From: Patescibacteria group bacterium UBA5272
Lineage (GTDB): Bacteria; Patescibacteriota; Minisyncoccia; Phycocordibacterales; UBA5272
DNA length: 64,000 bases
Direction of reading: 5' to 3'
Assembly: GCA_002408565.1 (NCBI GenBank)
Contig: DHTA01000005.1
Location: 108,049-172,048 of the forward strand
Position numbers and translations under genes: made by a program. Numbering within the stretch: the stretch's first letter is position 1; every line of letters starts with the position of its first letter. Shown here piece by piece: positions 3,420 to 43,291 of the stretch. Under the pieces are notes generated by a model. It did not search any database, was not told the DNA's origin, and saw nothing but the letters and a program-made list of their open reading frames with translations.

Positions 3420-4511
3420 ATGAAAATCTTATACGTAATTACCAAAAGCAATTGGGGCGGAGCGCAAAAATATGTGTTTGATTTAGCTCTCGCTATGAAA
3501 AATTTTGGCTATGATGTGGCAGTGGCTTTTGGAGGCTCTGGCAAGCTTGCGGAGAAGCTAAAAGAAAAGGAAATTCGTACTATTGAGATCCCTAATTTAG
3601 AGAGAGATGTAAACTTTCTGAAAGAGCTATCGGTTTTAAGATATTTAGGAAAAGTTTTTAGAGATGAAAAGCCGAATGTGGTGCATTTGAATAGTTCCAA
3701 GATTGGAGTCTTGGGAGCTATCTTAGCCAGAATGACTAATATTAAAAAAATAATTTTTACTGCACACGGATTTGCTTTCAGGGAAGATAGATCTAAAGTA
3801 GAAGTCACTTTAATCAAATTTTTATCTTGGCTAACAATTTTATTTTCCCATAAGACAATTTGTGTTTCAGAAAGGGATTTGAGAGACGTTGAAGATTGGC
3901 TTTGGATAAAAAATAGATTGACGGTTATTCAAAATGGAATTGAAATTAGGGAAATATCTAAGCCAGAGAGACCGAAAGAAGATTTAATAAAGATTGTTTC
4001 TATAGGCGAGCTTCATAAGAATAAAGGATTTAAATATGCTCTAAAAACTATAAATATTTTGAAAGAGAAAGTGTCAAATTTTAAATACACGATTTTCTCT
4101 TTTGGGGGAGAAGAGGAAAATAAATTGAGAAAGAAAATCGTAAAACTAAATTTACAGAATTTTGTAGAGCTGATCATAACCAAAGAAAAGTCTGACGACG
4201 AACTCAAAAATTTTGATATTTACTTTCTACCTTCTATTAAAGAAGGATTGCCATATGTCCTCTTGGAAGCTTCTCTAAATTATTTACCTATAGTCGCTAG
4301 CGAGACAGGTGGAGCCGGGGAAGTTGTAGAAAATAATAGAAGTGGATTTTTGGTTAAAACAAAAGACAAAGAAGGTTTTGCAGTGGCTCTGGAAAAATTA
4401 ATTAGAGATAAGGAGCTGCGAGAAAGTTTTGGAAAAGAGGCAAGAGAAATCGTAGAGAGTAAATTCAATATCGAGACCATGATCGCCAAAACTTTGAGTC
4501 TTTACAGTTGA
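3420..4511 (+). CDS. Family-4 glycosyltransferase (GT-B fold)
   Basis: N-terminus YVITKSNWGGAQKYVFDLA and a C-terminal EGLPYVLLEA...E motif (E-x7-E) fit Glycos_transf_1. Confidence 0.7.
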   Translation: MKILYVITKSNWGGAQKYVFDLALAMKNFGYDVAVAFGGSGKLAEKLKEKEIRTIEIPNLERDVNFLKELSVLRYLGKVFRDEKPNVVHLNSSKIGVLGAILARMTNIKKIIFTAHGFAFREDRSKVEVTLIKFLSWLTILFSHKTICVSERDLRDVEDWLWIKNRLTVIQNGIEIREISKPERPKEDLIKIVSIGELHKNKGFKYALKTINILKEKVSNFKYTIFSFGGEEENKLRKKIVKLNLQNFVELIITKEKSDDELKNFDIYFLPSIKEGLPYVLLEASLNYLPIVASETGGAGEVVENNRSGFLVKTKDKEGFAVALEKLIRDKELRESFGKEAREIVESKFNIETMIAKTLSLYS

Positions 4512-4679
4512 TTTCGTGTCTTGGTTTGGATCCCTATCTTATTTGTATTTTTTTAAAAAATATGATATATTATTTTCAGTTAAGTTTTGAGTTCTAATCA
4601 AGAGAAACAGCTAAATTTAAATCAAACTTTTTCAACTGTTTTTTCATTTTTCGCTCAATTTTCTATCGAGCCATTTTTT

Positions 4680-4720
4680 ACCCTCTGTCCGTTCTGCGGA
4701 TGGAGGGTTTTTCTTTTATT
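4680..4720 (+). terminator. Rho-independent terminator-like hairpin plus U-tract, about 170 nt downstream of the GT4 stop
   Basis: ACCCUC-UG-UCCG-UUCUG-CGGA-UG-GAGGGU followed by TTTTTCTTTTATTATTTT. Confidence 0.5.
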
Positions 4721-4727
4721 ATTTTCA

Positions 4728-4736
4728 TGCTAAAAT
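4728..4736 (+). promoter_or_regulatory. Extended -10 element (TGcTAAAAT) for tRNA-Trp
   Basis: TGCTAAAAT lies 9 nt upstream of the tRNA 5' end. Confidence 0.4.
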
Positions 4737-4745
4737 CTAAAGACT

Positions 4746-4818
4746 GGGTCTATAGTTCAGTGGTAGAATAGCGGTCTCCAAAACCGTTGACCGAGGTTCG
4801 AATCCTCGTGGACCCGCA
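4746..4818 (+). tRNA. tRNA-Trp (anticodon CCA)
   Basis: Cloverleaf folded by eye: acceptor GGGUCUA/UGGACCC, anticodon loop CUCCAAA, T-arm GGUUCGAAUCC. It aligns nearly position-for-position with E. coli tRNA-Trp. Confidence 0.9.
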
Positions 4819-4860
4819 TCAAAGATCGTATTTTAAAACTATGTTACAATAGTTTCTATT

Positions 4861-5415
4861 ATGACGACTGCCTATTGCTCACAATATAGAGACATTGAAG
4901 ACAAAATCTGGAAAGATAGAGCTTGTTCTCTTTGTGCTCTTTGGATGGCTTTAAAATCTTTAAAAAGTGATTTTAATTTGTCTCCCAATGAATTATTGAA
5001 AAAAGGACTTTATATAAACGCTTTTGTAGATCCTGGATATTGGAGACATGACAGACTGACAGTTCTTTCTCACAATTATGGACTACCTTCTTATGCGGAA
5101 GAGTTTAAAAGTGCCCCTTTTGGAAAAGAGACAAAATACGCGGAAGAAATTTTGAATCATGGAATAAACAAAATTTTTAATTTTTTAAAAAATGGGGAAG
5201 GTATGATTATAGTTTCTGTGCCAAAAGATTTTATACATTTTGATAAGCCACATTCTATATTGTTGCATTCTGTAAAAGAAGAAAATAATGAAAAATATTT
5301 CATCTATAATGATAGCGCCAAAGAAAACGAAGAAGAGGGTAAAAATCTCAAAGTTTCTCTCCAAGATTTTGCAAAGTCTTGGAGGAGATTGGCTATATTC
5401 ATCAATAAGATTTAA
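4861..5415 (+). CDS. Papain-fold cysteine peptidase, C39-like (Peptidase_C39_2/BtrH-like), stand-alone
   Basis: N-terminal Q...C pattern (CSQYRD...DRACSLCALWMAL) resembles the Gln/Cys of the C39 active site. A downstream His (HFDKPHSILLHSV) could complete it. No signal peptide. Confidence 0.4.
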   Translation: MTTAYCSQYRDIEDKIWKDRACSLCALWMALKSLKSDFNLSPNELLKKGLYINAFVDPGYWRHDRLTVLSHNYGLPSYAEEFKSAPFGKETKYAEEILNHGINKIFNFLKNGEGMIIVSVPKDFIHFDKPHSILLHSVKEENNEKYFIYNDSAKENEEEGKNLKVSLQDFAKSWRRLAIFINKI

Positions 5416-34180: not shown

Positions 34181-34531
34181 ATGGGTGAAAGTATATCAAA
34201 AACTTGGAAAAAAATCAATGTTGAGTTAAAAGGAAAGCCATTTTTATCCATTATTCTAACTCTTATTTTATGTATTAGTTATTTAAGTTATAAGATATTA
34301 ACCCATCCTAAGCTTTTTTCCGCTAAAGCTTTTGATTATCAAGCTTCCAATATCTCAGCTGAAACTCTAAAAAAAGCTAATTCTATTCGCTATATCTATG
34401 CTAGTCGCAGAGGCAGTAAATATTATTTTTACAATTGTAAATCTAGTATTAAAGAGACTAATAAAATCTATTTTGATTCAGAAGCCGCCGCCCAAAAAGC
34501 TGGCTACACTTTAGCCAAAACTTGTCAGTAG
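34181..34531 (+). CDS. Membrane-anchored small protein with an Ada-like metal-binding C-terminal motif
   Basis: TM helix, then KYYFYNCKSSIKETNKIYFDSEAAAQKAGYTLAKTCQ. This resembles the Ada_Zn_binding pattern YH..C....I...N..F.S..A..AGY.PCK.C. Confidence 0.45.
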   Translation: MGESISKTWKKINVELKGKPFLSIILTLILCISYLSYKILTHPKLFSAKAFDYQASNISAETLKKANSIRYIYASRRGSKYYFYNCKSSIKETNKIYFDSEAAAQKAGYTLAKTCQ

Positions 34532-34572: not shown

Positions 34573-34665
34573 ATGGCAAAAGGTGATTTTAGAGAAAGAA
34601 AAGAAAAAAAGAAACCAAAAAAATGTGGTTGTATGGGAAAGTGTAAGTGTAAAAAAGAATTTTAA
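34573..34665 (+). CDS. Putative 30-aa basic Cys-rich peptide (MAKGDFRERKEKKKPKKCGCMGKCKCKKEF)
   Basis: Hand-translated short ORF, not in the ORF track. It has its own extended -10 upstream (TGTGATATAAT at about 34541) and a terminator 27 nt downstream. Confidence 0.3.
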   Translation: MAKGDFRERKEKKKPKKCGCMGKCKCKKEF

Positions 34666-34691
34666 TCTATATCTTACTAGTTTAAAATAAA

Positions 34692-35347: not shown

Positions 35348-36166
35348 ATGTCTATGACTCAAATTTTAAAAAATATAAAATCTAAACCTTATTTTTCTTC
35401 TAATGATTTTGTTCTGTATTTAGGAGATAGTATTGAATATTTAAATCAATTACCTGAAAATAGCGTAGACATGATTTTTGCTGATCCACCTTATAATTTA
35501 TCTAATGGGGGTTTTTCTTTGCATGCTGGGAAAAGGGTTCCTGTGAATAAGGGAGACTGGGATAAAAGTAAAGGCTTTCAAAATGATTATGAATTTCATT
35601 TAACTTGGTTACGGGCTTGTTATAGAGTTTTAAAACCAGACGGAACGATCTGGGTTTCTGGGACATATCACTCTATATATCAATGCGGGTCAGCTATGCA
35701 ACAAATTGGTTTTCATATTTTAAACGACATTTCTTGGTTTAAACCAAATGCATCTCCTAATTTATCTTGTAGATTTTTTACAGCTTCACACGAAACTTTA
35801 ATTTGGGCTAGAAAAGATAAAAAAGGAAAACATTATTTTGATTATAAGTTAATGAAAGAGGGAGATTGGAAGGAGGATTTTATCAAAAAACCCAATTTAC
35901 AAATGAGATCAGTTTGGTCAATTTATCCTCCTAAAACTTATGAAAAAGTCCATGGAAAACATCCTACCCAAAAACCTTTAGAGTTATTAAGAAGGTGTAT
36001 TCTGGCTAGTACAAAAGATGGGGATATTATAATAGATCCGTTTACTGGCAGTTCTACTACTGGGATTTCTTCTAAAATTATAGGAAAAAGGAAATTTGTT
36101 GGTTTTGATCTTGAAAAAAAGTTTTTGGATGTTAGTATTAAAAGGTATAAAGATTTATTGAAATAA
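35348..36166 (+). CDS. DNA methyltransferase, beta-class amino-MTase (N6-adenine or N4-cytosine; PF01555)
   Basis: Motif IV DPPY (MIFADPPYNL) precedes the C-terminal motif I region HPTQKPLELLRRCI...IIDPFTGSSTTG. The order IV then I indicates the beta class. DPPY favours N6-adenine. Confidence 0.8.
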   Translation: MSMTQILKNIKSKPYFSSNDFVLYLGDSIEYLNQLPENSVDMIFADPPYNLSNGGFSLHAGKRVPVNKGDWDKSKGFQNDYEFHLTWLRACYRVLKPDGTIWVSGTYHSIYQCGSAMQQIGFHILNDISWFKPNASPNLSCRFFTASHETLIWARKDKKGKHYFDYKLMKEGDWKEDFIKKPNLQMRSVWSIYPPKTYEKVHGKHPTQKPLELLRRCILASTKDGDIIIDPFTGSSTTGISSKIIGKRKFVGFDLEKKFLDVSIKRYKDLLK

Positions 36167-36171
36167 AAAAT

Positions 36172-36696
36172 ATGAAAAAAGGTGGAGTGGGTGGTGGAAA
36201 TACATTAACGGGTTTAAATTTTGAAAGAGAAAGAGATTTTTTATCTGTTTTAGATAAATCTAAAGGATATTCTATAAAAGATAATATAATATATTTCAAA
36301 AATAAAGAGGTTGCTAGAAACTATAGAAAAAATAGTTTATATAAATACTTAGAATCAAGAGGGGTAGATTATAAAAATCATATAAGTAAAAAATTATTAC
36401 CTGATGACGCTATTTATGTTATTAAAAATAACACTCTATTTATTATAGAAATGAAATTCCAAACTGTTGCTGGATCTGTAGATGAAAAATTACAAACTTG
36501 CGATTTCAAACTAAAACAATATAAAAAATTAATGTCTCCTTTGAATATAGATGTAGAATATATTTATATATTAAATGACTGGTTTAGAAAGTTTGAATAT
36601 AAAGACGTTTTAGATTATATAATTTCTGTAGGATGTGATTATTATTTTGAATATCTGCCACTTAAAAGACTGGGTTTGCCAGTTCCTAAACAATAA
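36172..36696 (+). CDS. Putative Type II restriction endonuclease (small PD-(D/E)xK fold)
   Basis: Immediately downstream of the MTase (5-nt gap). LLPDDAIYVIKNNTLFIIEMKFQ gives PD-x13-E-x-K. Confidence 0.5.
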   Translation: MKKGGVGGGNTLTGLNFERERDFLSVLDKSKGYSIKDNIIYFKNKEVARNYRKNSLYKYLESRGVDYKNHISKKLLPDDAIYVIKNNTLFIIEMKFQTVAGSVDEKLQTCDFKLKQYKKLMSPLNIDVEYIYILNDWFRKFEYKDVLDYIISVGCDYYFEYLPLKRLGLPVPKQ

Positions 36697-36744
36697 AACA
36701 AAAGAGGCGTATTCACACCTCTTTTGTTTTTTTAGTAATTAAAA

Positions 36745-36972
36745 TTATTCATTATGACATGATGTGCAGTAATAGCACCCATCCACGTTGTCAGCAATCT
36801 CCTTAGAGAAATTTTCTTTTACATAATTGATTGCGGTATGACAAGAAGTAAAAATTCCTAAAAATTTTTGATTTTCTGATTTTGGTAGAAGAGAACAACT
36901 AGAATTATGTACTTCGTAATTTTCTCCACTTTTAGAATCTTGTTTGTTTAAATTTAAAATATATTTATTCAT
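36745..36972 (-). CDS. Small Cys/His-rich protein (75 aa), putative zinc-binding, Ada-like N-terminal motif
   Basis: YEVHNSSCSLLPKSENQKFLGIFTSCH ... DGCYYCTSCHNE gives C-x3.. and C-x2-C-x2-CH clusters. Convergent with the R-M genes. Confidence 0.4.
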   Translation of the reverse strand: MNKYILNLNKQDSKSGENYEVHNSSCSLLPKSENQKFLGIFTSCHTAINYVKENFSKEIADNVDGCYYCTSCHNE

Positions 36973-37294
36973 ATTTTTTATTTACCATTAATAATAAGTT
37001 TTTGTTCTTTATCCAACTAGAAATTTTACAGCTGGGTATATTCTTTATCTCTATCGATTCTTGCTTTAATAAATCTTTTCTCTGAATCTCAAGAACTATA
37101 AATTAATATTTTTTACTGAATTTAAACCCTTAAGAACTATTAAATTATACAAAAATTCAAACCCTGTCACAAATATTATGGTGTTTTAATTGTGTGGATA
37201 GTGTGGAAAAGTAAAAACATTCATACATTCATATTTGCCAATAGATATAAACACTTGTTTATTCATGATCTTTATAAAATGCTATAATCTACCT

Positions 37295-40200
37295 ATGAAT
37301 AATCTAAATCAAACCTTCGAAACCCGCTATAAAAACCTAAATGAAAAGCAAAAAGAAGCTGTAGATACGATTGATGGCCCGGTTTTAGTAGTGGCTGGAC
37401 CAGGGAGTGGAAAGACAGAACTTCTCTCACTTCGTGCAGCAAATATTTTGAAAGAAACTCAGGCAACTCCTGGAAATATATTACTCCTCACATTTACTGA
37501 AAATGGAGCTAAAAATATGCGTGAGAGAATAGTCTCTCTAATTGGTGAAGCTGGATATAGGATAGCGATTTATACTTTCCACGCTTTCGCGAGCGACATT
37601 ATGAATAAATATGCCGAATTCTTTTTTGATGGAGCAAATTTTAAACCAGCCACTGAAGTGGAAAAGATAAATATTATTGAAAAAATCCTAGAGGCACTTC
37701 CAAGAGAAAATCCTCTGACCAGTCTTCATCCTGAAAAAGGCTACGCCTATCTCTATGATATTATTGCCCTCATCTCCGCTCTCAAAAAAGGAAATCTCAC
37801 CGGTGAAGAATTTAAAGAAAAAATTAAAAGAAATGAGAGTGAATATAAAGAGATAAATGAAAAAGTCAGCGAATACTTTTTAGAGATCGCAGGTAAAAGA
37901 AAATTTGAATTACTTCGCGATGTATATTTACAGATTTATAATGAATTAAATTTAATGGGGCAAAATGACAACAATGTGGCTAAGTTTTTGGCGGATATTT
38001 TATCTTTAGAGATAAAGCACGCTGAAGAAGTTGGTAAAGGGAACAATTTAACCAAATGGAAAGACCAATATTTTACCAAAAGCGAAGATGGCAGATTTAT
38101 TTTAAAAGATAGCCGCGAAGAAAAGATCAAGAAATGGATGGCTGTTGAAGATGTCTATGAGAAATACAACGCCAAAATGTATGAGGTTGGGCTATACGAC
38201 TTTGACGATATGATTTTTAAAGTTGGGCGCGAGCTTGAGAAAAATGAGGGACTAAGAAATGAGCTAGAAGAAAGATTCCAATATATTATGATTGACGAAT
38301 TCCAAGACACTTCGGACTCACAGTTTAATTTAGTTTTAAATCTAACTAAAAGTCTGGTAAATGAGGGAAGACCAAATGTTTTGGCTGTTGGAGACGATGA
38401 TCAGGCTATTTTCAAATTTCAAGGAGCTGAATTGGACAATATTACTAAATTTATAAAAAGTTACAAAGAAGTTAAACTTGTCACCTTAGATAAAAACTAT
38501 CGCTCTACTCAAAATATTTTGGATGAAGCGAGAAAGCTTATTACAAAAATTGGAGACAGACTAGAAACTAGGTACCCAGAAATAAATAAAGAAATCAAAG
38601 CGGAAAATGAAAAATTAATCAAGGCTCACAAAGGAGAAATCGTAGAGAAAAATTTTGACAATATTCATAGCGAGTTTAATTTTGTAGCTAAAGAGATAGA
38701 ATCTTTAATTAAAAAGGGAGTAAATCCAGAGGAAATAAGCGTCATCTCACGAACCCATAAAAATTTGAAAAACTTAGCTTCTATTTTTAATGAATACAAA
38801 ATCCCTTATAGCTATGAAAAAGAAGAGAACGTTTTTGATAAAGAACCGATTAGAGAAATAATTACTTTGGTAGAATTTGCGGAAAGTGGACTTGAAAATA
38901 TTAAAGAGGAATTGCTTCCAGAAATTTTGTCTTATAAATTCTGGGGTCTAGATAGAATAGAGGTTTGGAAAATAGGGGAGGTGGTCAGACAGGGAGAGAT
39001 TAGTTTAGGAGAGTTTGGAGAGAGAGTTTATATTAAACCATCTTGGCTTAAAGTAATGTTGGAAAGTCAGAATGAAAAAGTAAAAGGTGTTGCAAAATTT
39101 TTAATAGAACTAGTTAGCGATGCAAAATCTTTACCACTCCTTCACTTGATAGATAAAATAGTCGGTACTCGTGAATGGGAAGTGAATCGTGAATACGACG
39201 ATGGGGAAGAGGGAGAAAAAGAAATTAATTTTATTTCTCCATTTAAAGGATATTATTTTGGAAAGGAAAATTTTGATCACAATAAACCAGAATACCTAGA
39301 CTTCCTTTTTGCGCTTCGCACATTTATTGGTTCTCTTCGCGAATACAAAGGTGGTGATACCCTGTATGCTAGAGATTTGAAAGATTTTGTAGCTATTTAT
39401 GAAAATAATAAAAACTTAACCCTTTCTACCATTTCTCCTTTTGCGACTAGTGAAAAAGCGGTAGTACTTCAGACGGCCCACAAAAGTAAAGGACTTGAAT
39501 ATGAATATATTTTTATTTTAAATAGTGATGAAAATGAGTGGAATGGTAGGAAAGGTGTAAATAAAATTGGACTTCCAATCAATTTGCCACTCTTGCCGTC
39601 AGATGATGATATTTCGGACAGGGTGAGACTTTATTATGTAGCTATGACTAGAGCTAAACATACTCTTTATATCACTAATAATAAGGAAAAGTTTTCTATG
39701 CTTTTAACGGAAAAAGAAGAGAAAGAGAAAAACGAAATAGATGACGACTTGATTAAGACTTTATATCCGGTAGAGAAAAAGATATTTTTGGAAGATGAAA
39801 AAGCCCTTTTAAAAAGAGTTTTAGAGGATTATAAAATGCCGGTTACTCATATTATAAATTTCTTAAATATTGGAAAAATTGGTCCAGAAAAATTCTTGGA
39901 GCAAAATTTACTTCGTTTTCCACAAGCTATGAGTCCATCTAGTGTCTATGGAACAGCTATACACGAGGCTATTCAAAACTACTATCTTTATAAAAAGAAA
40001 TATGAAAAGAATCCAGATCTTGACAGAGTAATCTCTTTTTTTAAGAACGCTTTAAATAGAGGAGCTCTTTCAAAGATAGAATACGAAAAATATTATAATT
40101 CCGGAGTGAAAAATTTGGAAATATTTATTCAAAATTTAGAGAAGCAAAAAGAGTTAGGGCAGATTGAAGTGGAAGTAAACTTTGCTAACGAAGGAGTGCA

Positions 40201-40675
40201 GATAAAAGATGTGCCAGCAACTGGAAAGATAGATAAATTAGTCTTGAATGGAAATTCTGCTGTGGTCACTGATTTTAAGACGGGAAAAAGTTTTAGAGAT
40301 TGGAATGATGGAGATAGCAATTATGACAAAATAAAATTGCATTTCTTTGAATATCAGCTGGCTTTTTATGCCCTACTTCTACGAAATTCCAGAACCTATG
40401 AAAGGGTTAATTTTGAAAAAGGAATTATAGAGTTTGTAGAAGCTGATTCAAAAAATAAAGTAAATATTTTGGAAATAAAAGATGGTGAGGAATTTGAGGT
40501 TATCATAGATAGGGTAGAGTCTTTGGCTAATGCTATTTACAAAAAGATAGTCGATTTAGATTTTCCAGATACTGCGAGATATAAACTGAAAAAAGATAGA
40601 GCGGAAGAAAAAGATGAAGTCACCCTGAGAGATATTATTCAATTTGAAGATGATTTATTAAGTGGTAATATATAA
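37295..40675 (+). CDS. AddA-like ATP-dependent helicase/nuclease (UvrD/PcrA-type SF1 helicase fused to a C-terminal RecB-family PD-(D/E)xK nuclease)
   Basis: Walker A VVAGPGSGKTE, UvrD motifs (MIDEFQDTS, VGDDDQAIFKFQGA, YRST) and the C-terminal nuclease motif GKIDKLV...VVTDFKTGKS. TATAAT at 37283-37288. The track's 37235 start is in-frame upstream junk. Confidence 0.8.
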   Translation: MNNLNQTFETRYKNLNEKQKEAVDTIDGPVLVVAGPGSGKTELLSLRAANILKETQATPGNILLLTFTENGAKNMRERIVSLIGEAGYRIAIYTFHAFASDIMNKYAEFFFDGANFKPATEVEKINIIEKILEALPRENPLTSLHPEKGYAYLYDIIALISALKKGNLTGEEFKEKIKRNESEYKEINEKVSEYFLEIAGKRKFELLRDVYLQIYNELNLMGQNDNNVAKFLADILSLEIKHAEEVGKGNNLTKWKDQYFTKSEDGRFILKDSREEKIKKWMAVEDVYEKYNAKMYEVGLYDFDDMIFKVGRELEKNEGLRNELEERFQYIMIDEFQDTSDSQFNLVLNLTKSLVNEGRPNVLAVGDDDQAIFKFQGAELDNITKFIKSYKEVKLVTLDKNYRSTQNILDEARKLITKIGDRLETRYPEINKEIKAENEKLIKAHKGEIVEKNFDNIHSEFNFVAKEIESLIKKGVNPEEISVISRTHKNLKNLASIFNEYKIPYSYEKEENVFDKEPIREIITLVEFAESGLENIKEELLPEILSYKFWGLDRIEVWKIGEVVRQGEISLGEFGERVYIKPSWLKVMLESQNEKVKGVAKFLIELVSDAKSLPLLHLIDKIVGTREWEVNREYDDGEEGEKEINFISPFKGYYFGKENFDHNKPEYLDFLFALRTFIGSLREYKGGDTLYARDLKDFVAIYENNKNLTLSTISPFATSEKAVVLQTAHKSKGLEYEYIFILNSDENEWNGRKGVNKIGLPINLPLLPSDDDISDRVRLYYVAMTRAKHTLYITNNKEKFSMLLTEKEEKEKNEIDDDLIKTLYPVEKKIFLEDEKALLKRVLEDYKMPVTHIINFLNIGKIGPEKFLEQNLLRFPQAMSPSSVYGTAIHEAIQNYYLYKKKYEKNPDLDRVISFFKNALNRGALSKIEYEKYYNSGVKNLEIFIQNLEKQKELGQIEVEVNFANEGVQIKDVPATGKIDKLVLNGNSAVVTDFKTGKSFRDWNDGDSNYDKIKLHFFEYQLAFYALLLRNSRTYERVNFEKGIIEFVEADSKNKVNILEIKDGEEFEVIIDRVESLANAIYKKIVDLDFPDTARYKLKKDRAEEKDEVTLRDIIQFEDDLLSGNI

Positions 40676-40677
40676 TT

Positions 40678-41556
40678 ATGGCTGATAAATATAATGCAGT
40701 TTGGCTCTCCCATTCATCTTTTAACGACTTTTTAAGTTGCCCTAAAGCTTATTATCTTAAAAATGTCTATAAAGACCCTAAAAGTAGAAATAAAATCTCT
40801 CTAATTTCTCCACACACCTCTCTTGGCTCAGCCGTTCATTTAACTATTGAAACTCTTTTAGATTTTCCTTCAGAAAAGAGGACAGAAAAACTAAATACTT
40901 TAGAAAAAGACTATGAAAAAATTTGGCAAGCTAATTTTCAAGGGAAAAGAGGTGGATTTTTGAGCGAAGAGGAAGAAAAAGATTTTTTTGAAAGAGGTTT
41001 AGCAATGATTAAAAATATCAAAGAAAATCCAAATTTTTTATTAAATAAAATTATAAAAAGAGAAAGTTATTATAAGGGAGATATTTTACCAAACTTTTTT
41101 ATTGATGACGAAGAAGAAATTTTGCTTTGTGGAGTACCAGACTGGGTAGAATATTTAGACGATGACACTTTGCACGTGATAGATTTTAAAACTGGAAAAA
41201 ATGAAGAAAGAGAAGATAGTTCTCAATTACCAATTTATGTTTTACTTTTAGAAAATTTACAAAAAAGAAAAGTCTCTCGGGCTAGCTATTGGTATTTGTC
41301 CAAAGATAAGAAAGCACAAGAAAAAGAAATCAACAGAGAAGAGATTGAAGACCTTAAAAATAAAATTGTTAAAACCGGAAAAGATATTAAAGATTTAAAA
41401 AATGAAGCCTTAAAAAAAGACTGGCGAGAAGTCTTTTTTTGTGGAAGAGGGGAGGAGGGTTGTATACATTGTAAAGATTATGAGAAAATAGTTTCTGGTG
41501 AAGCAGAATATGTCGGTAAAGATATTTACAATAAAGATGGTTATATTTTAAATTAA
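40678..41556 (+). CDS. Stand-alone RecB-family/Cas4-like PD-(D/E)xK nuclease with a 4-Cys cluster (AddB nuclease-domain-like)
   Basis: N-terminal Cys (FLSCPKAYYL), nuclease motifs (GVPDWVEY, HVIDFKTGKN) and a C-terminal CGRGEEGCIHC cluster: the 1+3 Cys Fe-S arrangement seen in AddB/Cas4. A 2-nt gap after the helicase suggests translational coupling. Confidence 0.65.
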   Translation: MADKYNAVWLSHSSFNDFLSCPKAYYLKNVYKDPKSRNKISLISPHTSLGSAVHLTIETLLDFPSEKRTEKLNTLEKDYEKIWQANFQGKRGGFLSEEEEKDFFERGLAMIKNIKENPNFLLNKIIKRESYYKGDILPNFFIDDEEEILLCGVPDWVEYLDDDTLHVIDFKTGKNEEREDSSQLPIYVLLLENLQKRKVSRASYWYLSKDKKAQEKEINREEIEDLKNKIVKTGKDIKDLKNEALKKDWREVFFCGRGEEGCIHCKDYEKIVSGEAEYVGKDIYNKDGYILN

Positions 41557-41557
41557 C

Positions 41558-43291
41558 TTAGTTTTTAATTTGTAAACGAAGAAGCTTGAGAGAATCGTAA
41601 TCTATTTTTATTTTTAAATCTTTATTTAATTTATCAAACTTAGTCTTTAGTCCAGAGTCTTCTGCTAAAACTTTTTTAATAGCTTTTAATTGAATATTAG
41701 TATATTTTTTCTCAATTTCTTTCCAAATATATTTCAAATCTTTTTCTTCTATTTCTCTCCCTTCAAATAATTCTTCAATATGACTAATAATAGTATTGGT
41801 TTTTAAGCTTCTCTTTTTAGCAATTTCTTTTGGCAAAAGTTTTTCTTTGAGAAAGTCTAAAGTCACTAAAGTGGTTTTAGTTTTTACAGGTTTTTCAAAA
41901 GTTTCTTTTTCTAGTTCGTGAGGAACTAAATCCCCATCAGAAGCCAAGATAAAATCTTCTTGTAATCTTTTGAGTTTATTTTCCATTTCTTTACTAGAAA
42001 AATATTTTTCTAAAGCTTGACTAGCTTTCTCGGATCTAGCTCGAAAAACTTTATCTTGCTTTGTAACCCCAGGATTAATTTTTAAAGCTTTATCATGAAT
42101 ACCCAGAAGACAAATATTTTCAAATTTCCTTACTCTAGATAAGGCTACGTAACCCATGCCTGTACCAAAAGCTTTAGAAAGGTCAATTTCGGCAGCGTCT
42201 AAAGTCATACCTTGAGATTTGTGCACTGTAATAGCCCAAGCGTAGCGAAGAGGCAATTGTGAAATTTCAGCCAAGACTTTGCCGTCATCATTTACATATT
42301 GCCAATTTTCTCGAGAGACCGAAATCTTTTTTCCATCAAAAGTTTTAACTATAGGCATATTGGAGACATCAAAGTCTATAATTTCTCCCAAAGTTCCATT
42401 TTGATATTCGCGATTTTTATCATTTTTTACAAAAATAACTTTAGCTCCTTTTTTGAGATTAATACTTTCTGGAGCCAGACAGTTAGCTTTCAAAATTTCT
42501 ACAAAGTTTTTCTTCCCGTTGCAAATCACTTCATAAGAAAATTCTGGAGAGTCAATTTTTAAATCACAATATTTTTCTAAATTAATAGTATCTACATCAA
42601 TATTATGAGTGTAAAGTTTTAAAGTTTCAGTTTTTGTTTGAGAAGAAAGGTTTTTGTTTAATTTTTGAAGAATTTTATTTGTGTCTCTTTCAAAACGAAT
42701 ATCGTTTAAAATTTTTGTTAAAGTTTCACCTTCTTTTTGGCGATAATTTTCTTCTAAATAACAAATTATCGGATTTAATTCTTTCCAAGCTAGAGAGTTA
42801 TAAGCAAATTCCTGATCTTCGTCCGGATAATCTTCCATCTTTCCATATCTTTTAACCACTGGTGGAAGCTGAAAAAAATCTCCACAGAAAACTATTTGTA
42901 TTCCACCAAAAGGTAAATCATTTTTTCTAAAAGTTTTAAAAAGAGTATTAATCATATCAAGACGATTGGCGTGAAGCATGGAAATTTCGTCGATAATTAA
43001 AACTTTAACATTTGCATAACGTTTATAAAGTTTTTCATTTTGTTCAAGTTTATCTAAAGTATATTTATCTAATTTTTCATAGACACCAATTCCGCTCCAA
43101 GAATGAATAGTTTGTCCTCCAATATGAGTGGCTGCGATACCAGTAGAAGCTGTAATAGCTGGAGGAATAGAATGAGACTTTAAATATTCAATATATTTAT
43201 TTAAAACAAAAGTTTTACCAGTGCCAGCAGCTCCAGTCAAAAATACCGAATGTCCCATTTTCATTATATCCAAAGCTTCTTTTTGAGTCAT
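41558..43291 (-). CDS. Pif1/RecD-like SF1B DNA helicase with a C-terminal extension
   Basis: Walker A LTGAAGTGKTF, Walker B LIIDEISM, Q-motif and RecD/Pif1 family motifs (VHKSQGMTLD). About 130 extra C-terminal residues. Confidence 0.7.
   Translation of the reverse strand: MTQKEALDIMKMGHSVFLTGAAGTGKTFVLNKYIEYLKSHSIPPAITASTGIAATHIGGQTIHSWSGIGVYEKLDKYTLDKLEQNEKLYKRYANVKVLIIDEISMLHANRLDMINTLFKTFRKNDLPFGGIQIVFCGDFFQLPPVVKRYGKMEDYPDEDQEFAYNSLAWKELNPIICYLEENYRQKEGETLTKILNDIRFERDTNKILQKLNKNLSSQTKTETLKLYTHNIDVDTINLEKYCDLKIDSPEFSYEVICNGKKNFVEILKANCLAPESINLKKGAKVIFVKNDKNREYQNGTLGEIIDFDVSNMPIVKTFDGKKISVSRENWQYVNDDGKVLAEISQLPLRYAWAITVHKSQGMTLDAAEIDLSKAFGTGMGYVALSRVRKFENICLLGIHDKALKINPGVTKQDKVFRARSEKASQALEKYFSSKEMENKLKRLQEDFILASDGDLVPHELEKETFEKPVKTKTTLVTLDFLKEKLLPKEIAKKRSLKTNTIISHIEELFEGREIEEKDLKYIWKEIEKKYTNIQLKAIKKVLAEDSGLKTKFDKLNKDLKIKIDYDSLKLLRLQIKN

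Follow-up and report, generated by a model that had tools for sequence, protein, structure and literature searches.

A compact methyltransferase–nuclease gene pair in a Patescibacteria genome represents a widespread presumed restriction-modification unit that probably targets GATC

The gene pair and its two proteins

The 64,000-nt stretch analysed here in full (the window) belongs to contig DHTA01000005.1 of Patescibacteria group bacterium UBA5272 and carries two adjacent genes on its plus strand: one for a DNA methyltransferase and one for a 174-aa protein, presumed to be the nuclease of the pair, which we label X. An earlier note, made from the sequence alone, had described them as a compact Type II restriction-modification (R-M) pair. 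Our analysis supports this description, with both open reading frames (ORFs) in place and 5 nt apart. The window is ordinary low-GC (about 31%) chromosomal DNA, encoding DnaK, DnaB, CysRS, SufB, RmuC, ribosomal proteins and an AddAB-like helicase-nuclease, and the nearest relatives of both the methyltransferase and X come from assemblies of Patescibacteria (the candidate phyla radiation, CPR). The pair comprises the following features.

35348–36166, plus strand: gene for a DpnA-type beta-class N6-adenine DNA methyltransferase, 272 aa (assigned by Pfam, PADLOC and identity to DpnA-type enzymes)
35483–35494, plus strand: catalytic motif IV, DPPY, residues 46–49 (read in the sequence)
36041–36064, plus strand: S-adenosylmethionine-binding motif I, FTGSSTTG, residues 232–239 (read in the sequence)
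36167–36171, plus strand: 5-nt spacer AAAAT from the methyltransferase stop to the X start (sequence)
36172–36696, plus strand: X gene, 174-aa PD-(D/E)xK nuclease, presumed restriction endonuclease
36190–36225, plus strand: N-terminal motif GGGNTxTGxxFE of X, including the invariant E18; (near-)invariant in alignments A1 and A4
36400–36408, plus strand: P77-D78-D79, first catalytic acid (D78 invariant in the alignment), just ahead of model strand 80–85
36448–36456, plus strand: E93-M-K95, ExK catalytic motif (E93 and K95 invariant), at the end of model strand 88–95
36472–36510, plus strand: GSVDEKLQTCDFK, the best-conserved block in the X family and a candidate DNA-recognition element (alignment and model)
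36695–36730, no strand assigned: 16-bp hairpin followed by a T-run, likely a bidirectional terminator closing the operon (terminator scan and sequence)

With the hairpin and T-run placed after the second stop codon, the two genes resemble a compact operon. The 5-nt spacing, viewed against the overlaps and short gaps in related loci, is consistent with a single operon whose two genes may be translationally coupled.

The methyltransferase matches Pfam N6_N4_Mtase (PF01555) with an E-value of 5e-55 and 187 bits, against a gathering score of 26.7, and its DPPY motif lies N-terminal to FTGSSTTG, the beta-class order that the earlier note had recognised. Its best PADLOC model, PDLC03371 (3e-91), is also the top model for the pSRQ700 and Staphylococcus plasmid enzymes and for the Treponema partner of X, with an identical order of runners-up. 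The window enzyme shares 52% identity with the second methyltransferase of Lactococcus plasmid pSRQ700, 49% with a Staphylococcus plasmid enzyme and 54% with its Neisseria cinerea counterpart. Its best annotated relatives are second methyltransferases of three-gene cassettes (Dam-type enzyme, second methyltransferase, restriction enzyme) on pSRQ700 and on Staphylococcus and Lactiplantibacillus plasmids, and all examined annotated relatives at 46% identity or above lie within such cassettes of Dam-type, DpnA-type and restriction enzyme genes. We take pSRQ700 to be the plasmid of LlaDCHI, a GATC system. Judged by these similarities, the protein is a beta-class N6-adenine enzyme whose closest annotated relatives are the DpnA-type second methyltransferases (50–54% identity) and not CcrM or HinfI.

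For X, a confident AlphaFold model (mean model confidence score, pLDDT, of 82) shows a PD-(D/E)xK nuclease with the catalytic residues on the canonical beta-hairpin of that fold, in agreement with the fold proposed in the earlier note. The signature given there as PD-x13-ExK is present (LPDDAIYV...IIEMKF), but the spacing from D78 to E93 is 14 rather than 13; a spacing of 13 holds only when counting from D79, a position that varies between D and E. D78, E93 and K95 are invariant in 46 aligned relatives of 57–83% identity. Across these 46 sequences from many phyla, 11 of the 13 positions of GSVDEKLQTCDFK are invariant and the other two are at least 90% conserved; in the model, this block covers a loop and the 103–107 helix and reaches the start of the 110–124 helix, after the catalytic hairpin, and it may contribute to DNA recognition. 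Model confidence is lowest at the N-terminal GGGNTxTGxxFE motif (block mean pLDDT 54), which might take part in binding DNA or a metal ion.

The solved structures nearest to the model are Type II restriction enzymes, namely BstEII, BsoBI, NgoMIV, PspGI, Bse634I and MunI. They share only 9–15% sequence identity with X, which is much smaller, lacks their extra domains and has no close structural relative; searches of PDB sequences with X, both as a single sequence and as a profile, returned only noise. By analogy with the type of these structural neighbours, X might leave a 4-nt 5′ overhang, which is suggested only. Other identities considered for X were set aside. Pfam matches were absent for DpnD, the second gene of DpnI cassettes (DpnD/PcfM; E-values up to 1), as they were for Hjc-like nucleases and for the MutH/Sau3AI family, to which X showed no significant likeness in sequence or structure either; a methyl-dependent enzyme was ruled out on logic, as X is always encoded beside methyltransferases.

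A widespread family and its linkage to methyltransferases

The X family amounts to about 6,900 clusters at 90% identity. A HMMER scan of 50%-identity representatives returned 973 clusters at E ≤ 1e-3 and 562 at E ≤ 1e-10, and nearly all family clusters are stand-alone proteins of 170–190 aa. Given these 973 clusters, the invariance of the catalytic residues and their placement on the model hairpin, the PD...ExK motif of X is beyond chance. At least 569 species carry X in one-genome-per-species data, spread over Patescibacteria, Alphaproteobacteria, Verrucomicrobia, Elusimicrobia, Clostridia, Cytophagales, Gammaproteobacteria and Neisseriaceae, with identities of 63–80% across phyla. Source databases label these relatives ‘hypothetical protein’ or ‘PD-(D/E)XK nuclease superfamily protein’; the latter is also the NCBI label of Pfam PF20472 (PDDEXK_11), whose Pfam entry gives no function and of which a literature search found no mention. 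PF20472 is assigned to gut/Firmicutes relatives about 60–66% identical to X, and P0271 scores 35.6 bits on it. The system type is ordinary, while the nuclease family is uncharacterised but very widespread; its members may already be listed in REBASE as putative enzymes. A phage origin of X was considered and rejected, with zero matches in 50,697 phage genomes and 24 in IMG/VR contigs, mostly more distant.

For the genomic context of X, we fetched 80 genome, 80 metagenome, 24 viral-contig and several other loci (numbered with the prefix L) and classed the neighbouring genes by local searches. Linkage was counted over the 140 loci that had 1 kb or more of flanking sequence on each side, 120 of them cellular. 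All 120 cellular loci encode at least one of three methyltransferase types (DpnA-type, Dam-type and a third type) within 4 kb of X. The loci divide among the partner sets as follows.

61 of 140 loci: DpnA-type only, orthologous to the window enzyme
16 of 140 loci: Dam-type and DpnA-type
11 of 140 loci: Dam-type and the third, N6_N4 type (PADLOC PDLC03376)
10 of 140 loci: Dam-type only
3 of 140 loci: third type only
24 of 140 loci: any of these types together with a DpnII-family gene
6 of 140 loci: other combinations
9 of 140 loci: none of the three types, all on viral contigs

A close ortholog of the window methyltransferase lies directly upstream of X in about 62 of the 80 genome loci, and the enzyme is thus not an orphan, a status that would have refuted the reading of the earlier note. 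In window-like loci, the methyltransferase–X junction is either a 4-nt overlap or a gap, usually of 1–10 nt (range 1–22). Pairwise identities of X and of its methyltransferase correlate (r = 0.65; 51 loci, 1,275 locus pairs) around equal means (0.69 and 0.70), from which it follows that the two move and diverge as a unit. Methyltransferase motifs, an adjacent nuclease with an intact active site and conserved linkage, as befits a member of the Type II R-M systems, are all present.

Natural fusions of X occur: P0293 (489 aa) joins a D12 (Dam-class) methyltransferase to an X domain, and P0259 (290 aa) joins X to DUF7004. In six CPR loci, full-length LexA (DNA-binding domain plus S24 self-cleaving peptidase) is fused to the DpnA-type methyltransferase upstream of X, giving proteins of 479–527 aa (L013, positions 3939–5399; L012, L037, L066, L069 and L070), and in three further loci LexA is a separate ORF just upstream. 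This association suggests SOS-linked control of the R-M unit, of which we know of no earlier description. A 196-aa ORF without a Pfam match recurs beside or inside the cassettes (homologs in L039, L102, L107, L191 and L036); in L013 (5409–5999) it sits between methyltransferase and X, a position taken by other unmatched small ORFs in L004 (142 aa) and L066 (124 aa). In several Dam-type cassettes, X is separated from the downstream methyltransferase by an inserted gene for a modification-dependent nuclease of the GmrSD type, DUF262/DUF1524 (L033:3649–5309, L025:728–2434 and L045:6490–6987). More distant X homologs are found on viral contigs (L178–L180, 34–194 kb; L183, L185 and L188–L190). For some of the viral homologs (49% identity), none of the three partner methyltransferase types searched was found within 5 kb. 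L183 encodes an X shortened to 138 aa, followed by a small methyltransferase with an NPPF motif, and the X match in L185 and L188–L190 is similarly shortened.

Around the window cassette itself, two small Cys-rich ORFs occupy positions 34575–34667 and 36745–36972 (minus strand). One is a 30-aa Lys/Cys-rich peptide, MAKGDFRERKEKKKPKKCGCMGKCKCKKEF, with a hairpin terminator after it; the other encodes 75 aa ending in CYYCTSCHNE. A 116-aa ORF (34181–34531) beside the L27 gene has a weak match to the ‘sunset’ domain (NCBIfam) and, at its C-terminus, a weak match to the Ada zinc-binding domain. The 75-aa downstream ORF, the 116-aa ORF and a 160-aa upstream ORF were examined as possible parts of the system and discarded after a search of other fetched loci gave no homolog for any of them; because these flanking ORFs lack such homologs, the mobile unit is taken to consist of two genes only. 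Directly downstream of the pair (window 37235–41556 and 41558–43291) lies a gene for an 1146-aa AddA-like UvrD helicase with a C-terminal PD-(D/E)xK domain, followed within 37235–43291 by a 292-aa PDDEXK_1 protein (AddB-like) and, on the opposite strand, a PIF1-family helicase.

The likely target site and competing explanations

The target site, given as unknown in the earlier note, can be narrowed: the evidence points to GATC, and not to the GANTC that the likeness to CcrM had suggested. The alternative upstream partner of X belongs to the Dam/DpnM family (TIGR00571, 295 bits against a cutoff of 115). Its best PDB match is DpnM (2dpm, 2e-75), it is 49% identical to the pSRQ700 Dam-type enzyme, and in ten loci, such as L157 and L201, it is the sole partner of X. 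In the X tree, loci with DpnA-type and with Dam-type partners are interleaved, the mean identity between the two groups being the same as that within them (68%). It follows that X has repeatedly switched partner class while itself remaining unchanged, and the simplest explanation is that all partners protect one site. GATC is the only site known to be common to Dam/DpnM-type enzymes, DpnA-type enzymes and the co-found DpnII genes.

The under-representation of palindromes, a check proposed in the earlier note, gives weak support to the same site. None of the other palindromes among the 96 short ones scored reaches as low a z-score as GATC, either in the window (115 observed, 174 expected; ratio 0.66) or in pooled window-type loci (ratio 0.74, z −12). 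GANTC is not depleted in the window (0.97). Observed-to-expected ratios of other 4-mer palindromes in the window are 0.46 for ACGT, 0.54 for GCGC, 0.56 for GGCC, 0.70 for CATG and 0.71 for TCGA, which hints at exposure to further restriction systems.

The Neisseriaceae anchor the assignment of GATC to X. A search of a plasmid collection with X gave a gonococcal chromosome filed there as the sole match. In this chromosome, leuS is followed by drg (a DpnI-like gene), a frameshifted DpnA-type methyltransferase gene and a frameshifted X gene (L081:2149–4500), whereas three intact genes that overlap one another at the same leuS locus of N. cinerea encode Dam, a DpnA-type methyltransferase and X (L196:2390–4555). 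The N. cinerea X protein (184 aa) is 97% identical to the gonococcal remnant and 51% identical to the window protein. Kingella oralis carries the Dam, DpnA-type and X trio at another genome location, and Alysiella crassa has Dam and X. The pneumococcal DpnII operon is ordered dpnM-dpnA-dpnB (PMC3812788), and in the corresponding order Dam, DpnA-type, X the nuclease (dpnB) slot is taken by X. Dam at the gonococcal leuS locus has been associated with GATC methylation in PacBio data for two dam-carrying strains (PMC6789123), and Drg, which replaces Dam in gonococci, cuts GmeATC (PMC4269198). Published descriptions of the locus, named NgoAXI in one of them (PMC6789123), list dam or drg and, after it, a ‘truncated MTase’ or a ‘DpnIIB-like enzyme’; they treat Dam as an orphan and do not mention the third gene, the X homolog (PMC6789123, PMC4269198). 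An X that cuts unmethylated GATC would be expected to decay together with the methyltransferase beside a GmeATC-cutting Drg, but decay for no particular reason would leave an identical picture.

We consider it likely that the pair is a two-gene Type II R-M unit in which X is a GATC-specific endonuclease blocked by partner methylation, and the best reading of the X family is that of a new family of GATC-specific restriction enzymes. The DpnA-type enzyme would methylate the adenine of GATC on the host chromosome, giving G(m6A)TC; X, presumably as a homodimer, would cut unmethylated GATC in incoming DNA; and the pair would spread horizontally as a two-gene unit. The analysis shows the fold and motifs, the structure of the genes, the size of the family, its conserved methyltransferase linkage and the exchange of partner classes; the nuclease activity of X, its specificity and methylation sensitivity, its dimeric state and its cut position are predictions of this scheme.

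Several observations weigh against assigning X this role. The nine viral-contig copies lack any of the partner methyltransferase types within 4–5 kb. X has no PADLOC or NCBIfam model, and its match to PF20472, which covers the catalytic hairpin, reaches 20.7 bits and so stays below the gathering score of 23.7. X is also conserved to the same degree as its methyltransferase, an unusual pattern among restriction enzymes. The depletion of GATC is modest and not specific, the ratios of ACGT, GCGC and GGCC being lower in the window, and it was assessed without control genomes free of X, with GATC avoidance being common in bacteria. Since the ratios of other 4-mer palindromes are as low or lower, and for want of such a control, we count it as weak support. 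Finally, the intact DpnII-family gene (PF04556, E 3e-111; PADLOC REase_II) present in the 24 cassettes listed above is unexpected if X duplicates DpnII. Such cassettes occur in Finegoldia and Chakrabartyella, in the genome of an uncultured member of the Clostridia and on many contigs from gut metagenomes, and although many of the loci are closely related to one another, they represent at least three gene orders: Dam-X-DpnII-methyltransferase, Dam-DpnII-X-methyltransferase and Dam-DpnII-X-DpnA (examples are L079:6001–8150, L084:2552–6284 and L086:3916–7165). Recombination between cassettes sharing methyltransferase genes could produce this co-residence as plain redundancy. SsuDAT1I of Streptococcus suis, reportedly a two-enzyme GATC cassette, would be a precedent for it.

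Co-residence with DpnII in several gene orders also speaks for granting X a complementary role, in which it would be tied to GATC methylation without being a plain DpnII isoschizomer: it might act on single-stranded or hemimethylated GATC DNA, nick one strand, or back up DpnII against phage inhibitors. The unusually high conservation of X fits such a role, as does the fact that its commonest partner is of the DpnA type, a type whose prototype in pneumococcus acts on single-stranded DNA as a methylase (PMC3812788). Retention of X beside DpnII and its strong conservation would both be explained if it were a distinct, non-redundant second nuclease, for instance one for single-stranded or replicating DNA, matched to the single-strand methylase DpnA. 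We regard the complementary role as rather improbable, and hold the specific version of a non-redundant second nuclease to be similarly doubtful.

That the pair is a Type II system directed at another target, be it GANTC (as for HinfI and CcrM) or some other adenine-containing site, seems unlikely to us. The methyltransferase does match the CcrM model (NCBIfam NF050803, 1e-70) and the CcrM structure 6pbd (3e-59), an identity of about 50% is no reliable guide to specificity, and Dam-family enzymes of other specificities exist. Its CcrM score, however, is 238 bits against an equivalog cutoff of 830, and the match spans profile positions 7–249 of 350, where the window protein ends; the C-terminal DNA-binding domain of CcrM is absent. 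Moreover, the Lactococcus DpnA-type enzyme of pSRQ700, which we take to be GATC-specific, outscores the window protein on this same model, so likeness to CcrM does not imply GANTC. The confinement of the examined annotated relatives (46% identity or above) to cassettes with Dam-type and restriction enzyme genes, the exchange of DpnA-type for Dam/DpnM-type partners without divergence of X, the cassettes shared with DpnII and the undepleted GANTC of the window all speak against another target, and GANTC was rejected as the candidate site. It is very improbable, in turn, that the adjacency is meaningless, with X serving as a housekeeping nuclease in repair or recombination, such as one of the resolvase-like kind, and the methyltransferase an orphan. 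Such a view is hard to square with methyltransferase linkage in every cellular locus while the other neighbours differ everywhere, with the patchy distribution of X over phyla and the joint divergence of the two proteins, or with the existence of a methyltransferase–X fusion and the decay of both genes together in gonococci.

Should X be a GATC-specific endonuclease, roughly 7,000 clusters now labelled ‘hypothetical’ or ‘PD-(D/E)XK superfamily’ would gain a function and a target site, and GATC restriction would be very common in Patescibacteria. This would matter for the transformation of these bacteria, in that DNA from dam-plus Escherichia coli should be protected. The dam/drg polymorphism of Neisseria would then represent the exchange of a DpnII-like cassette (Dam, DpnA-type, X) with a DpnI-like one (Drg), mirroring the pneumococcal DpnI/DpnII cassettes, rather than the swap of an orphan Dam. 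Should N. cinerea, N. lactamica and similar species lack a DpnII-family gene, X would be the candidate behind the GATC activities reported from them, such as NciAI and NlaII. With 174 aa, X would rank among the smallest GATC enzymes and would lend itself to studies of how so minimal a PD-(D/E)xK core reads four base pairs. The analysis also yields a candidate function for the X family and reads the Neisseria dam/drg locus more fully.

Comparison with known systems

With CcrM and M.HinfI, which act on GANTC, the window methyltransferase shares the beta-class fold and strong similarity in the catalytic domain. Its identity to them is about 42%, below that to DpnA-type enzymes, and it lies far below the family cutoff and lacks their C-terminal domain.

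The closest parallel is offered by the cassettes of the DpnII, LlaDCHI and MboI type (dpnM-dpnA-dpnB), whose DpnA-type enzyme is 50–54% identical to the window methyltransferase and falls into the same PADLOC cluster. Unlike these cassettes, that of the window has no Dam/DpnM gene. X stands where dpnB would be, behind the Dam-type and DpnA-type genes, in N. cinerea, in Kingella and at several metagenome loci. The two nucleases differ in size (174 aa for X, about 290 aa for the DpnII family), and X has no Pfam (PF04556) or PADLOC match to DpnII. Their best hhalign alignment is collinear, pairing D78 with D199, E93 with E212 and the GS..KL of X with GGSKL, yet with both shallow and deep alignments it is not significant (E = 0.07–0.2, probability below 1%), which leaves common ancestry unproven. 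The presumed target and methylation sensitivity of X are those of R.DpnII and R.MboI (PF04556), and X would thus be a functional equivalent of MboI and DpnII drawn from an unrelated, or very remotely related, sequence family.

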